Source: Planctomycetota bacterium
GTDB lineage: Bacteria; Planctomycetota; B15-G4; SIAN01
Reading direction: 5' to 3'
DNA length: 64,000 bases
Assembly (NCBI GenBank): GCA_031409275.1
Contig: JANNXA010000014.1
Coordinates: forward strand, 32,001-96,000
Position 1 is the stretch's first letter. The number at the start of each line of letters is the position of its first letter. The notes under the pieces were generated by a model that searched no databases, was not told where the DNA came from, and was given only the letters and a program-made list of their open reading frames with translations. Position numbers and translations under genes: made by a program. Of this stretch, positions 7,286 to 21,456 are shown in pieces.

Positions 7286-9079
7286 ATGTACGTGCTCGGA
7301 CTCTCCTTCTACTACCACGACTCCTCCGCGGCCCTGGTGCAGGACGGGAAGATCGTGGCCGCGGCCGAGGAAGAACGCTTCAGCCGCATCAAGCACGACT
7401 CCGGCTTCCCCGGATTGGCGATCGACTTCTGCCTGCGCCGCGCCGGCATCACGCTGCAGGACGTCGACCTGATCGTCTTCTACGAGAAGCCGATCGTGAA
7501 GATGGAGCGCATCCTCACCACCGCCTTCTCGACCTTCCCGCGCAGCTGGGCGGTGTTCCGCGAATCGATGCACACGTGGTTGACGAAGAAGCTCTGGATC
7601 AAGGACCTGCTGAAGAAGCGGCTCGGCGTGAAGGCCGAGAAGATCGTCTTCGCCGACCACCACATGTCGCACGCGGCGTCGAGCTACTTCACTTCGCCCT
7701 ATGACCACGCCGCGATCCTCACGGTCGACGGCGCCGGCGAATGGACCACCGGCACGCTCGGCGTCGGCAAGGGCAACCGCATCAAGATCGTGAAGGAGAT
7801 GCGCTTTCCCCACTCGGTCGGGTTGCTCTACAGCGCGTTCACCGCCTACTGCGGCTTCGAAGTCAACGAAGGCGAGTACAAGCTGATGGGCATGGCGCCC
7901 TACGGCCAGCCGAAGTACGTCGACCGCATCAAGAAGATGATCCGCATCGGCGAGGATGGCTCGCTGTGGCACGACATGAGCCACTTCAGCTACCACTGGT
8001 CGCCGACCTCGACACTCTCCGCGAAGTTCTCCGAGGTGATGGGCCAGCCGCCGCGCGATCGCAAGCACGAGGACAAGACGCTCGACCCGTTCTATTGCGA
8101 CGTCGCCGCCAGCATCCAGAAGGTCACCGAGGAGATCCTCCTCAAGATGGCGACCTACCTGCACCACGAGACCGGCCTGAAGAAGCTGTGCATGGCGGGT
8201 GGCGTCGCGCTGAACTGCGTCGCCAACCACATCGTGCTGCGCAACACGCCCTTCGAGGAGATCTACATCCACCCGGCGGCGGGCGACGACGGCGGCGCGG
8301 TCGGCGCGGCGATGTGGGGCTACCACGAGGTGCTCGGCCAGGAGAAGAAGGCGCCCGCGCTCGACCACGCCTACCTCGGCAGCGAGTACGACCACGCGCA
8401 GATCGAGACGTTCCTCAAGCAGAACGACATCAAGTACGAACTGATCGAGGATGACGATCGCTTCTACACGCGCGCCGCCGAGGAGATGGCGGCGGGCAAG
8501 GTCGGCGGCTGGTTCCGCGGCCGCTTCGAGTGGGGTCCTCGGGCGCTCGGCGCGCGCTCGATCATCGCCGACCCGGGCCGCAAGGACATGAAGGAGACGG
8601 TCAACTCGAAGATCAAGTTCCGCGAGGCGTTCCGTCCGTTCGCGCCGTCGGTGATCCACGACCGCGCCGCCGAGTTCTTCGACATCGAGGATCCGGACAA
8701 GCACTTCCCCTATCGCTTCATGCTCTACGTCGCGCCCGTGCACGAGGACAAGAAGAAGCACCTCGACGCCATCACCCACGTCGACGGCACCGCGCGCCTG
8801 CAGACGGTCTACGAGGACAGCAACCCCGGCTACTACAAGATGATCCAGCGCTTCGGCGAAGGATCGGGCTACCCGATCGTCCTCAACACCAGCTTCAACC
8901 TGAAGGGCGAGCCGATCGTCGAGGACCCCTCGCACGCCTTCAACACCTTCTCGCTCTCGGGCATGGACGTCCTCTTCCTGCAGAATTTCATCGTGCAGAA
9001 GGACGCCAAGAAGATCCTGAAGCGGACCAAGTTCGCGCTGCGCCACGACGGCGACACGGTGACGGAGATGCTCTCGTGA
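7286..9079 (+). CDS. Carbamoyltransferase (NodU/CmcH/SxtI family)
   Basis: YHDSSAAL, EEERFSRIKHD, HHMSHAAS, EGEYKLMGMAPYG, GGVALNCVAN, EWGPRALGARS, KFREAFRPFAP, LNTSFN. Confidence 0.95.
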   Translation: MYVLGLSFYYHDSSAALVQDGKIVAAAEEERFSRIKHDSGFPGLAIDFCLRRAGITLQDVDLIVFYEKPIVKMERILTTAFSTFPRSWAVFRESMHTWLTKKLWIKDLLKKRLGVKAEKIVFADHHMSHAASSYFTSPYDHAAILTVDGAGEWTTGTLGVGKGNRIKIVKEMRFPHSVGLLYSAFTAYCGFEVNEGEYKLMGMAPYGQPKYVDRIKKMIRIGEDGSLWHDMSHFSYHWSPTSTLSAKFSEVMGQPPRDRKHEDKTLDPFYCDVAASIQKVTEEILLKMATYLHHETGLKKLCMAGGVALNCVANHIVLRNTPFEEIYIHPAAGDDGGAVGAAMWGYHEVLGQEKKAPALDHAYLGSEYDHAQIETFLKQNDIKYELIEDDDRFYTRAAEEMAAGKVGGWFRGRFEWGPRALGARSIIADPGRKDMKETVNSKIKFREAFRPFAPSVIHDRAAEFFDIEDPDKHFPYRFMLYVAPVHEDKKKHLDAITHVDGTARLQTVYEDSNPGYYKMIQRFGEGSGYPIVLNTSFNLKGEPIVEDPSHAFNTFSLSGMDVLFLQNFIVQKDAKKILKRTKFALRHDGDTVTEMLS

Positions 9080-10695
9080 GCGGACGCAAGCTGGAACGCG
9101 GCGGCACGCGGAATGGCTGGCGCGCCGGCGAGCGCGGCGGCGCCTTGGGCGTGCTGCTCGGCTGGGTGATGACGCTGCTGCTGCTGGCGCTGGCGCTCGA
9201 GGGGATCCTGCGCCTGTCGGGACTGCGTCCGGTGGTGACCATCAACGAGCCCGACCCGGAGCTTGGCTGGGCCAAGCGCAAGAACGAATCGACGCGCAAG
9301 GTGACCAGCGAGTTCGACGTCACCTTCTCGATCAACCCGCTCGGCCTGCGCGACGACGCCGACCTCACGCTGGCCAAGCCCGCCGGCACGCAGCGCGTAC
9401 TGGTCGTGGGCGACTCCTTCGTGCTCGGCTACACGGTCGAGCGCCACGACCATTTCGTCGACCTCGTCGAGCGGGCGCTGGTCGCCGATGGCCGCAAGGT
9501 GCAGCTCCTGAACGGCGGAACCGAGGGCTACTCGACCGATCAGGAGGTCGCGTGGCTGCGCCGTGACGGCTTCGCGTTCGCCCCCGACATCGTCGTGGCC
9601 TGCTTCTTCCAGAACGACGCCTGGATGAACGGCAAGACCAGCTACTCGGGCACCCCGAAGCCCCGCTTCGCGTTGGACGGGACGCTGGAACCCGCCGCTG
9701 CCAACACCGCGCCGCGCCGCGGCTGGCTCGCGACGCGCACCGCGCTGTTCGGGCTGGTCGACACGCTCCAGACGTCGATGCGCTACGGCAAGGAGCTCGC
9801 CTTCCAGGAGGGCGGGATGTCGATGCCGATGGATGAGGTGGTGATGCTGCGCACGCCGCCGGCCGCCGTCGCCGACTGCTGGACGCGCACCGCGGCCGGC
9901 TTTCGCGAGCTGAAGAAGAGCTGCGACGAGAAGGGCGCGAAGCTGCTGCTGGTGGCGATCCCGACGCGCGAAGAGATCGAGCCGGGCGCGCTCGCTCGCT
10001 GGTGCGACGCGCGCGGCGTCGCGCCGGACGCCGTCGATCCGCAGTCGCCGGCGCAGAAGGCGCTCGCGCTGGCGAGCGCCGCCGGCATCGCGACGCTCGA
10101 CCCGAAGGCGGCACTGGTCGCCGCCGCGAAGGACGGCACCAAGGTCTACTTCGAGAAGGACTGGCATCTCAATCCGGCTGGTTCGCGCGTCCTGGCGCGC
10201 CAGCTCTACGACACGCTCGCCGCGCCGGCGCTCCTCGGCGGTGCGCCGACGCCGGCTGGGGATGCCGCGTTCGACTTCGTGCCGGACAAGCCGATGGCGC
10301 GCTGGCCGTTCGTGCTCGGCGCCGTCTGGCTGCTGCTGTCGACGCTCTACGCGCGTACCAACCGCGACGAGTCGACGGTCGCGGCGTTCCTCCAGGTCGG
10401 CGTGATGATCGCCTCGGTGGTCGCCATCGTCGCGGGCTTCAGCTGGCTGATCGGACTGCTCGGACCGCGCATCGGCCGCTACGTCGGCATCGCGCTGCTG
10501 GTCGGATTCGGCGGCTGGCTCTTGTTCAAGATGGGGTCGAAGCTCTCGATCATCCGCGAGGTCTACGGCGCGTTCCTGCGCAATGGACTGTGGTACATGA
10601 TCCCGCTGATCGTGGTGATGCTGTCGATTGGCGGCCTGTTGGTGGTGGCGAGCAGCTCGCCGTTCATCGCGCCGTTCATCTATACGCTCTTTTGA
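9076..10695 (+). CDS. SGNH/GDSL hydrolase-like (AlgX/AlgJ-type) membrane protein with fused C-terminal SxtK/DUF5989-like domain
   Basis: VGDSF, GGTEGYS, FQND and DWHLN catalytic blocks; C-terminus LWYMIPLIVVML...IAPFIYTLF; GTGA overlap with the carbamoyltransferase. Confidence 0.8.
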   Translation: MSGRKLERGGTRNGWRAGERGGALGVLLGWVMTLLLLALALEGILRLSGLRPVVTINEPDPELGWAKRKNESTRKVTSEFDVTFSINPLGLRDDADLTLAKPAGTQRVLVVGDSFVLGYTVERHDHFVDLVERALVADGRKVQLLNGGTEGYSTDQEVAWLRRDGFAFAPDIVVACFFQNDAWMNGKTSYSGTPKPRFALDGTLEPAAANTAPRRGWLATRTALFGLVDTLQTSMRYGKELAFQEGGMSMPMDEVVMLRTPPAAVADCWTRTAAGFRELKKSCDEKGAKLLLVAIPTREEIEPGALARWCDARGVAPDAVDPQSPAQKALALASAAGIATLDPKAALVAAAKDGTKVYFEKDWHLNPAGSRVLARQLYDTLAAPALLGGAPTPAGDAAFDFVPDKPMARWPFVLGAVWLLLSTLYARTNRDESTVAAFLQVGVMIASVVAIVAGFSWLIGLLGPRIGRYVGIALLVGFGGWLLFKMGSKLSIIREVYGAFLRNGLWYMIPLIVVMLSIGGLLVVASSSPFIAPFIYTLF

Positions 10696-10696
10696 C

Positions 10697-10894
10697 CGTT
10701 GCAGCTGACGACGGCGCCGCGGACGGCGGACGCAAGCGATCCGGCTCCAGCACGGCGCCGTCGCAGCTGAACGTTGCCATCGCTCCGACGAGCGCGAGGA
10801 CGCGCTCGCGGGCGAAACGGCGATGCAGCTGACGAACGGCGCGCCGCGGGGACGGCAGCAGGAACGGTGGAAGTCGCGCCGTTCGCAGCTGATC
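10697..10894. repeat. Array of four GCAGCTGA motifs with hairpin spacers; folds as two attC-like imperfect inverted repeats (10697-10773, 10822-10894)
   Basis: GCAGCTGA at 10701, 10763, 10825, 10885; cgtt[g]cagctg[a]cgacggcgccg pairs with cggcgccgtcgcagctgaacg; gat[g]cagctg[a]cgaacggcgcg pairs with cgcgccgttcgcagctgatc. Confidence 0.75.
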
Positions 10895-11015
10895 CGGGTG
10901 GACTCGAGCGCGCTGCGCGCGGCTCGAGCTGAGCGGTGGCGGGCAAGGGGGCGGCGATTCGCGCGCGCAACCCGGTGATCCTCGGCAGAATGCGGACCCT
11001 TCCACGGAGCTTGCC

Positions 11016-11909
11016 CTGAAACCACTCGTGCTCTACCACGGGCAATGCCTCGACGGCTTCGCGGCCGCTTGGGTCGCGTTCCAGCGCTTCGGCGGCGCTG
11101 GCGAGTACCACGCCGTCCAATTCGGCGAGACGCTGCGCTGGCCGGTCGACGGGCGCGATGTGCTCATCCTCGACTTCAGCTTCCCGCGCGAGCAGTTGAT
11201 CGACATGAAGCAGCGCGCCACGTCGCTGCTGGTGCTCGACCATCACGTGACGGCGCAGCAGGACCTGGCCGGCCTCGACTTCGCGCAGTTCGACCTCACG
11301 CGCGCCGGCTGCACGCTGACCTGGGACTGGTTCTTCCCTGGCGAGCCGCGCCCCTGGCTGCTGGGCTACGTCGAGGACAAGGACCTCTGGCGATGGAAGC
11401 TCCCCGACAGCCAGGAGGTCGCGGCGGCGCTCCAGAGCTACTCACGCTCGTTCAAGACGTGGGACAAGATCCTGCGCAAAGGCATCGACGCGCTGGTCGC
11501 CGAAGGGCGCCCGATCCTGCGCTACAAGAACCGACTGATCGAAACGGCCGCCAGCCGCGTGAAGATGATCGACTTCGAGGGCCACCGCATCCCGGTGGTG
11601 ACCAGTTGCATGCTGCAGAGCGAGATCGGCGGCCGCTTGGCGAAGGACCATCCGTTCGTCGCCATCGTCTTCGAGTCGGGTTCGCGCCGCATCTGGAGCC
11701 TGCGCTCGCACGAGGAGGGCGGCATCAACGTCGCCGAGATCGCCAAGCGCCACGGCGGCGGCGGCCATCCCAACGCGGCGGGGTTCATCGAGCCGTTGCG
11801 TGACGATGGACGCCAAGAGCTCGTCGAGCCGGCGCTCCCCATCTCGGCGGCAGAGCTCTCCGAACTCAGCGACAGCGAAGGCGACGGCAAGGACCTGCTG
11901 CCGAGCTGA
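11016..11909 (+). CDS. DHH/DHHA1 family phosphoesterase; probable CTG start
   Basis: YHGQCLDG, ILDFSF, LDHH, EDKDLW, GGGGHPNAAG; GGAG at 11006-11009 before in-frame CTG at 11016. Confidence 0.85.
   Translation: MKPLVLYHGQCLDGFAAAWVAFQRFGGAGEYHAVQFGETLRWPVDGRDVLILDFSFPREQLIDMKQRATSLLVLDHHVTAQQDLAGLDFAQFDLTRAGCTLTWDWFFPGEPRPWLLGYVEDKDLWRWKLPDSQEVAAALQSYSRSFKTWDKILRKGIDALVAEGRPILRYKNRLIETAASRVKMIDFEGHRIPVVTSCMLQSEIGGRLAKDHPFVAIVFESGSRRIWSLRSHEEGGINVAEIAKRHGGGGHPNAAGFIEPLRDDGRQELVEPALPISAAELSELSDSEGDGKDLLPS

Positions 11910-21368: not shown

Positions 21369-21456
<88 letters not shown>

Follow-up and report, generated by a model that had tools for sequence, protein, structure and literature searches.

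The intergenic hairpins that follow the SGNH/DUF5989 gene in this 64,000-nt stretch of DNA (the window) are best explained, with a probability that we put at roughly 0.55, as one copy of a lineage-specific, REP/BIME-like triple-hairpin repeat made from attC cores without R boxes; its copies are likely homogenised by exchange of the gene-conversion type, and each likely provides a block of structure at the transcript's 3′ end, behind the gene that it follows. An earlier interpretation from the letters alone (the sequence-only reading) had proposed domesticated attC remnants. The REP-like version of that proposal fits best, while its picture of two decayed tandem sites finds no support. An origin from an integron since lost is likewise unsupported: the unit recurs in conserved form at many loci, behind core genes, and an integron integrase gene (intI) is present elsewhere in the genome.

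The Element and Its Fold

The four GCAGCTGA boxes stand where they had been reported, at 10701, 10763, 10825, and 10885 (spacing 62/62/60). Their number in 64 kb is at chance level (expected mean 3.72; at least 4 in 53 of 100 shuffles); it is their clustering that is unusual, with all four copies of the window inside 192 bp. Folding of 10680-10950, compared with shuffles, gave z-scores of -6.0 (DNA, + strand), -5.9 (DNA, - strand), and -5.2 (RNA). Boxes 1+2 and 3+4 pair as claimed, with inner stems of 11 bp each, and each of the two hairpins does have two extrahelical bases, on the 5′ arm and 6 bp apart (G10701/A10708 and G10825/A10832). Each interval between boxes is indeed itself a hairpin, the middle one being separate and carrying its own bulges (Table 1). 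The partial GAGCTGA at 10926, rather than being a fifth box, belongs to the 3′ arm of one more hairpin, smaller than the other three.

Inspection of the window bears out the statement that R boxes are missing or mis-spaced. In hairpin A, AAC is absent 5 nt before L″, and GTT abuts L′ instead of lying 6 nt further on; in hairpin B, AAC is 3 nt ahead of L″, and the R′ position reads GAC, not GTT. No ORF lies between the cores, again as claimed. The reported absence of intI holds for the window, but not for the genome, where another contig carries it.

The SGNH/DUF5989 gene comes last, after a carbamoyltransferase gene, with its TGA stop at 10693-10695; hairpin A begins after a gap of ~2 nt. Against a covariance model of family cores (R1, described below), hairpin A, which took no part in building it, scores 43.1 bits and hairpin B 44.3 bits; among the true attC cores of the genus, the best match shares 76% identity with hairpin A. 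The locus is matched without differences or joints by contigs from two runs of one study, one run possibly being the source; because contigs of two runs span it without differences, an assembly artefact is unlikely. Among the public runs listed as carrying the locus, none is of RNA. Rfam gave nothing above noise at the locus; its sole match within the window is a tRNA gene at 21372-21456 (- strand).

Table 1. Features of the element and its neighboring genes, in window positions.
Feature	Position	Strand	Remarks
Upstream gene, SGNH/AlgX-like domain fused to C-terminal DUF5989	9076..10695	+	start codon position inferred
Hairpin A, attC-type L core	10697..10773	+	L″ 10698-10704, L′ 10764-10772, inner arms 10709-10719 / 10753-10763
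Middle hairpin	10776..10821	+	5′-arm bulges T10784, A10788; position kept across family, with covariation
Hairpin B, attC-type L core	10822..10894	+	inner arms 10833-10843 / 10875-10885, L′ 10886-10894, GAC at R′ position 10901-10903
Small tail hairpin, one bulge	10903..10928	+	other family copies have tandem small bulged hairpins here
Purine-rich tail with GGTGGCGGG motif at 10935-10943	10929..10950	+	G-rich tails typical of family
Downstream co-directional gene, DHHA1-domain phosphoesterase-like	11016..11909	+	start CTG 11016 or GTG 11028, inferred from relatives

A Family of Copies in the Genome

The genome carrying the window (G000; 5.59 Mb, 69% GC, 92.9% complete) contains 31 cores of the attC L type by whole-genome pattern search. 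Model R1, built from 27 short cores (25 from G000 and 2 from the relative G003, the window's two being left out), finds 36 cores in G000 at E<1e-5, with the window's two among them. They group into ~22 loci, of which one is decayed and several are truncated or tangled with other repeats. The genome-wide copy count proposed in the sequence-only reading is therefore ~22 loci in G000, with further copies in relatives. One hairpin with the core pattern, at C16:182866, sits within a predicted gene and was left out of the 22; ~18 further matches of a generic hairpin search were taken as chance.

Copies commonly consist of hairpin A, the middle hairpin, hairpin B, and a G-rich tail, often with tandem small hairpins; GC skew in the tails is +0.27, versus -0.02 after stops genome-wide. 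Covariation, noted earlier between the window's own hairpins, recurs in the other copies: 93% of cells are paired, and the family cores show 83 two-sided changes versus 25 in shuffles and 12-23 in slid controls, a count that relatedness inflates. Cores were modelled alone, since a whole-element multiple alignment misaligned the long and short types. The middle hairpin, which has no attC counterpart, covaries across the family as well (16 two-sided changes). The detection patterns demanded attC-like cores, so that counts of bulges and sequences are partly built in; when the bulges were left free in the search, both were present in 35 of 38 genomic cores, one was present in a single core, and neither in two unrelated palindromes, while three shuffled genomes searched in the same way yielded no cores. 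A role as intrinsic terminator, one of the fates suggested at the outset, finds no support: no U-tract follows the GC stem, and the tails are G/A-rich.

Comparison with True attC Sites

A search for intI elsewhere in the genome, as had been advised, found one on another contig of G000 (446.8 bits), with no attC within ~7 kb. A four-site attC array with full R boxes lies at the start of contig C2, with no integrase nearby. In G003 and G004, the orthologous intI is followed by an array of G000's attC type. Both loci (L114 and L125, respectively) are chromosomal integrons, with the cassette array downstream of intI and co-oriented with it; the orthologous intI of G000 stands alone. Upstream of intI in G004 (C3, L125) there is a long tandem array of 5- and 10-nt units.

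Long family hairpins, including the window's two, measure 72-75 nt, versus 73-74 nt for true attC sites of the genus, to which they are 63-76% identical and with which they have an inner-stem motif in common. Model R1 picks up true attC in addition to family cores. Geometry (two extra bases on the 5′ arm) and sequence thus agree that the hairpins are attC L-box cores, as first proposed. When the family-derived core pattern was run on GTDB genomes, 103 loci gave 105 matches, of which 78 carry both R boxes, 17 a single one, and 10 neither. Seven of the 27 non-canonical matches belong to the family and come from records with Planctomycetota or Phycisphaerales in the title. Among the matches listed from 120 sampled genomes of the phylum, those outside the family and one other genus were canonical attC. 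Because the R-bearing form is widespread and the R-less form local, attC is the likely ancestor, and the family cores likely derive from true attC sites. Much of the L-box covariation may have been inherited from diverse attC donors, as the same variants occur in true attC.

The differences lie in what surrounds the L boxes and in strand preference. The R box is described as the site where IntI cuts (PMC5027507, PMC2727003, PMC7439510). R′ GTT is found in none of 109 family cores versus 21 of 29 array cores, and R″ AAC in 7 of 109 versus 29 of 29, the 29 comparison cores coming from loci chosen as arrays; no family core has both R boxes. In attC, the bottom strand is reported to be the more stable, with purine-rich unpaired parts (PMC5027507). 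Here, it was the better folder in 27 of 29 attC versus 30 of 109 family cores (the top strand was better in 54). Array cores favor bottom-strand wobbles (A-C 15 and G-T 4, read on the top strand), whereas family cores have no wobble bias (in-stem G-T 6 versus A-C 8, in 114 cores), and their Watson-Crick pairing is strict (1390 of 1417 pairs). Unpaired bases of the sense strand are purine-poor in attC (GC skew -0.10, AT skew -0.44) and purine-rich in the family (+0.23 and +0.17). The unpaired central spacer is absent: the outer stem of hairpin A runs on for a mean of 2.24 pairs, with no R duplex after it, although some B hairpins show a non-canonical outer duplex by eye. As a cassette boundary the element fails too, the flanking core genes being common to relatives and no ORF lying between the cores. 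The elements are attC-derived, yet fail as attC sites.

Position at Gene Ends

In 15 of the 22 G000 loci, a stop codon lies at -6 to +2 of the first L″ (14 of 16 checked, plus one decayed copy); as background, 0.5% of intergenic positions in this genome fall within 3 nt of a stop. Across six genomes, 67 clusters were divided into 34 at a stop, 3 after the CCA end of a tRNA, 12 with a more distant stop, and 18 with none called; several of the 12 are B hairpins whose A was missed. Copies are always in the sense orientation. The genes so tagged include those for ArgRS, ProRS, MetH, G6PD, AdoHcy hydrolase, Rho, pyruvate phosphate dikinase, and two ABC permeases; 2 of 15 have no Pfam match. A SECIS reading was rejected, given that the element follows TAG and TAA stops no less often than TGA. 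By rough counts (crude gene calls, 2868 genes, the window's upstream gene missed), 13 of the 22 G000 loci lie between convergent genes, versus a background of ~37%.

The outer stems fit the end of their own gene, with 2.24 extra pairs versus 1.08 when flanks are swapped; for the 21 copies without a preceding GC, the figures are 2.24 and 0.70. In some copies, the reading frame enters hairpin A and stops in its loop or 3′ arm. The repeat then encodes the last residues and the stop of the gene, as seen at L180 (G000 C29), L102, L108, L116, L122, and L136.

Relatives, Gain and Loss, and Likely Exchange Between Copies

Model R1 has matches in all seven family genomes, with at least 10-27 per genome within the genus, true attC included (188 matches in that search, 150 of them listed); the counts for relatives are lower bounds, as 150 candidates per genome were scored (45 in the phylum search). 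At the stop of the SGNH/DUF5989 gene, the same element is present in G004, its stems conserved and its loops diverged; G003 has another subtype, in which the gene's last codons are the left arm of the first hairpin; and in G001 a single B-type hairpin is fused into the stop. In several copies, the right arm is complementary to the last codons of the gene it follows, with 8 outer pairs at this gene in G003, 9 in G004, and 7 in G002. The element is absent after the gene in G002, G006, G007, and the seven order-level genomes examined. The gap between the DUF5989 and DHHA1 genes is ~50 bp in G002, and holds differing extra genes in three relatives (G001, G003, and G007; ~1.4, 2.7, and 2.9 kb).

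Several species share tagged genes, frequently with differing subtypes, and same-genus relatives also carry elements after tRNA ends. Loci have been gained or lost, some being filled in one species and empty in G000. At one orthologous site that lacks the element, agreement with the filled site extends over three bases past the stop, as far as the G of L″. Three filled/empty pairs, compared for exact insertion ends and target duplications, proved too diverged to align across the gap. At one locus of G007, the second bulge is missing from two of three cores.

The nearest copy is a paralogue from elsewhere in the same genome, not an orthologue, for 29 of 36 A hairpins, 23 of 32 middle hairpins, and 25 of 32 B hairpins, a nearest-neighbor count biased by the fact that paralogues outnumber orthologues; against a size-matched foreign control, a paralogue is closer for 24 of 36, 21 of 32, and 22 of 32. 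Mean identity is still higher among orthologues (0.65, versus 0.61 for paralogues, in hairpin A). Long residence with partial homogenisation would fit these similarities.

A second R-less family, of single cores, is found in another genus of the order (G012 and G028), at ~12 per genome; these are intergenic and not at stops. Of 18 loci viewed, 17 are R-less and one is canonical (second-family loci: L077, L080, L100, L170, L175, L177, and L217-L228).

Other Repeats and Mobile Elements

These genomes hold several other elements. A RAYT-like Y1 gene in G000 (C27:25162-25488, L015) is flanked by its own 16-nt-tagged repeat, often in inverted pairs; with 43 copies in G000 and none in G001-G005, this repeat is a recent REPIN-like expansion. 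A second intergenic repeat, of ~110 nt, has 15 copies, often in tandem (G000 C4, C9, C10, C20, C27, C37, C50, and C51; L052, L056, and L160). It is interleaved with the attC-core element at three loci, has no Rfam match in the loci tested, and replaces the attC-core element at C27:75.8 kb, where G001 and G004 carry the latter.

In G006 (C13, L088 / L333), an IS110-family element lies in the spacer of an attC-like site, in opposite orientation and ~5 nt before L″, a placement known from the IS1111-attC group. G000 has three group II intron-type reverse transcriptase (RT) genes (C10, C35, and C47; L019-L021), of which that on C35 appears to interrupt an integrase-type IS gene. A further RT locus (C16:92000-96500, L022) has a small gene upstream, and downstream a template-like repeat of the preceding gene's 3′ end; read by eye, it looks like a diversity-generating retroelement.

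Relation to Known Systems

Like attC sites of the soil/freshwater type, the element has L″/L′ boxes, a 5′ arm with two extra bases separated by 6 bp, and the same core sequences, as well as a 50-nt terminal structure in its long copies and a sense orientation after a stop codon. Unlike them, it has neither R boxes nor an unpaired central spacer; its outer stem is closed, and it lacks a bottom-strand bias. In contrast to attC, CALIN, and SALIN (as treated in PMC4889954 and 10.1101/2022.09.11.507474), the unit consists of three hairpins and is scattered after housekeeping genes and tRNAs rather than gathered in cassette arrays.

With the RAYT-associated REP, BIME, and REPIN sequences of E. coli and Pseudomonas, it shares dispersed intergenic bulged hairpins, mosaic arrays, nearness to stops, restriction to a lineage, species-typical subtypes, and some enrichment between convergent genes. 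It differs from these in its attC cores; in a head-to-tail unit of 170-240 nt with one orientation; in numbering ~20 loci, not hundreds; in having no GTAG foot (it is flanked by TAG, TGA, TAA, or CCA, at variable offsets); and in that no linked RAYT was found in these incomplete genomes. By analogy, the element would work most like the REP/BIME mosaics discussed in PMC8266576.

According to PMC3001079, IS1111-attC elements and group IIC-attC introns insert on the opposite strand, close to where attC has its 5′ end. The insertion in G006 is one case showing that such an event can part R″ from the L core, as in these split sites; unlike them, the family copies examined retain no IS or intron, and R′ is missing too. 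In the papers searched, no description was found of an R-less attC repeat family, or of a link between attC sites and REP-like repeats.

Other Possible Origins

It is conceivable, though unlikely, that the element is a neutral or selfish DNA repeat with no host function, spread by off-target action of a recombinase of attC cores (IntI at the GTT/AAC of the L boxes, or an enzyme of the IS110/IS1111 type); nearness to stops would then be a bias of insertion or deletion. L″ boxes often start with GTT and L′ boxes often end with AAC, and the empty orthologous site that matches its filled counterpart up to the G of L″ would suit such a junction. intI is present in three of four same-genus relatives and in both second-family genomes (G012 and G028), the IS110-family element of G006 parts R″ from the core near the position of the family's left junction, and strict Watson-Crick pairing suits DNA. 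An extra base, however, is reported to disable L-bound integrase monomers (PMC2727003). L″ starts vary (GTT, CTT, GAT, ATT, and TTT), as does the stop offset (-6 to +3); no IS110 was found in G000, G002, G003, or G004 (78-93% complete); and the sense orientation is invariant, at positions that persist across species. The copies might instead be footprints of the process that builds cassettes, in which an attC hairpin is joined to the 3′ end of a gene or RNA, with incomplete products left on chromosomal genes; we consider this very unlikely. In a specific form, which we hold to be quite unlikely, attC cores are added at chromosomal stops and tRNA ends with an outer stem copied from the gene's last bases, giving half-made cassettes and a pool that exchanges sequence with the host's true attC array. 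Position and orientation are those of attC within a cassette, tRNA 3′ ends are tagged too, the cores match the host's own attC type, and in several copies right arms complementary to the gene's own last codons suggest templated copying; ordinary template switching in hairpins, though, can also give templated outer stems. Cassette formation is named as an open question (PMC8618304, PMC4889954), and a role in it has been proposed for IIC-attC introns (PMC3001079); G000 does have its three group II intron RTs, but no core lies beside the four RT loci searched. The R boxes are missing, moreover, the unit is three hairpins rather than one, and the tagged genes are housekeeping genes, not cassette genes.

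Mobilisation of a REP/REPIN family by a RAYT (TnpA-REP) transposase that recognises bulged hairpins has a remote chance of being correct. Bulged hairpins are RAYT substrates (PMC8266576), the Y1 gene of G000 is RAYT-like (below the NCBIfam cut-off), and a GGTGGYGRG motif, like the start of that gene's own repeat, occurs in 10 of 21 tails versus 34 of 1205 background regions. That repeat, however, is a different one, restricted to G000 among the genomes compared; no core at E<0.01 lies beside any of 30 Y1 loci searched; no Y1 gene was found in G001, G003, G005, or G007, all of which carry the family (70-94% complete); and a conserved GTAG foot is lacking. Integron activity could in principle have left a decayed cassette array or single inserted cassettes (CALIN/SALIN), given that G000 has intI as well as the four-site array without a nearby integrase, and that cassettes are reported to insert at chromosomal attG sites (10.1101/2022.09.11.507474). 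Such insertions retain R″ and bring a cassette gene, whereas there is no R″ here and no ORF between the cores; the flanking core genes are common to relatives, and the stems are intact and covarying. That core genes in six genomes keep the three-hairpin layout largely refutes this account, which seems scarcely credible. Least probable of all is an array of small structured RNAs released as units of ~62 nt, or a switch through pairing of boxes 2+3, possibilities that the sequence-only reading had touched on; the 62/62/60 spacing and the palindromic box of the window copy speak for them. Processed units of 62 nt are not borne out, as hairpin length ranges from 33 to 75 nt among copies. The 2+3 alternative is not kept, being fully complementary in 6 of 46 copies (9.9 expected at random), versus 41 of 49 for 1+2. 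Rfam searches of 16 family or attC loci matched one tRNA and no element.

A Possible Course of Events

Under the preferred explanation, a REP/BIME-like repeat from R-less attC cores, loss of the R boxes would have removed cleavage by IntI and so freed the cores from selection on the bottom strand; an IS110-family insertion like that before L″ in G006 may have been the means. The sense strand would then have become the selected one. Recombination between repeats may have carried cores from one gene end to another, and they may have persisted wherever strong structure of the sense strand, at the end of the transcript, was of use or did no harm. By analogy with REPs and with attC in cassette mRNA, hairpins 0-3 nt past the stop would slow down 3′ exonucleases and be encountered by the terminating ribosome. 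A long palindrome without mismatches is costly, and this, along with renewal of copies from bulged templates, might be why the bulges are kept. Translation is said to be lowered by REPs that lie within 15 nt of a stop (PMC12306157, citing earlier work), and attC hairpins are said to block the progress of ribosomes rather than end transcription (PMC8876359).

Some observations count against a role in RNA: the family cores have no RNA-type (G-U) wobble bias, many apical loops are C(GNA)G triloops, which are DNA-stable motifs, and the second R-less family is placed away from stops. The dispensability of the element, with its empty orthologous sites and its gains and losses at other loci, counts against such a role too. 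As to an enzyme spreading the copies, none was identified at the RAYT, IS110, and group II intron RT loci searched.

Implications

In this family, the cores of integron recombination sites would live on in a new guise, repeated across the genome at housekeeping genes. Together with the second family, this suggests that attC cores have turned into R-less repeats at least twice in one order. One practical consequence is that lone attC-like matches are not necessarily cassettes. The natural R-less variants offer material for learning what IntI needs of its sites, and, as the cores occupy precisely the place that attC has in a cassette, they may provide a lead on how cassettes are made.
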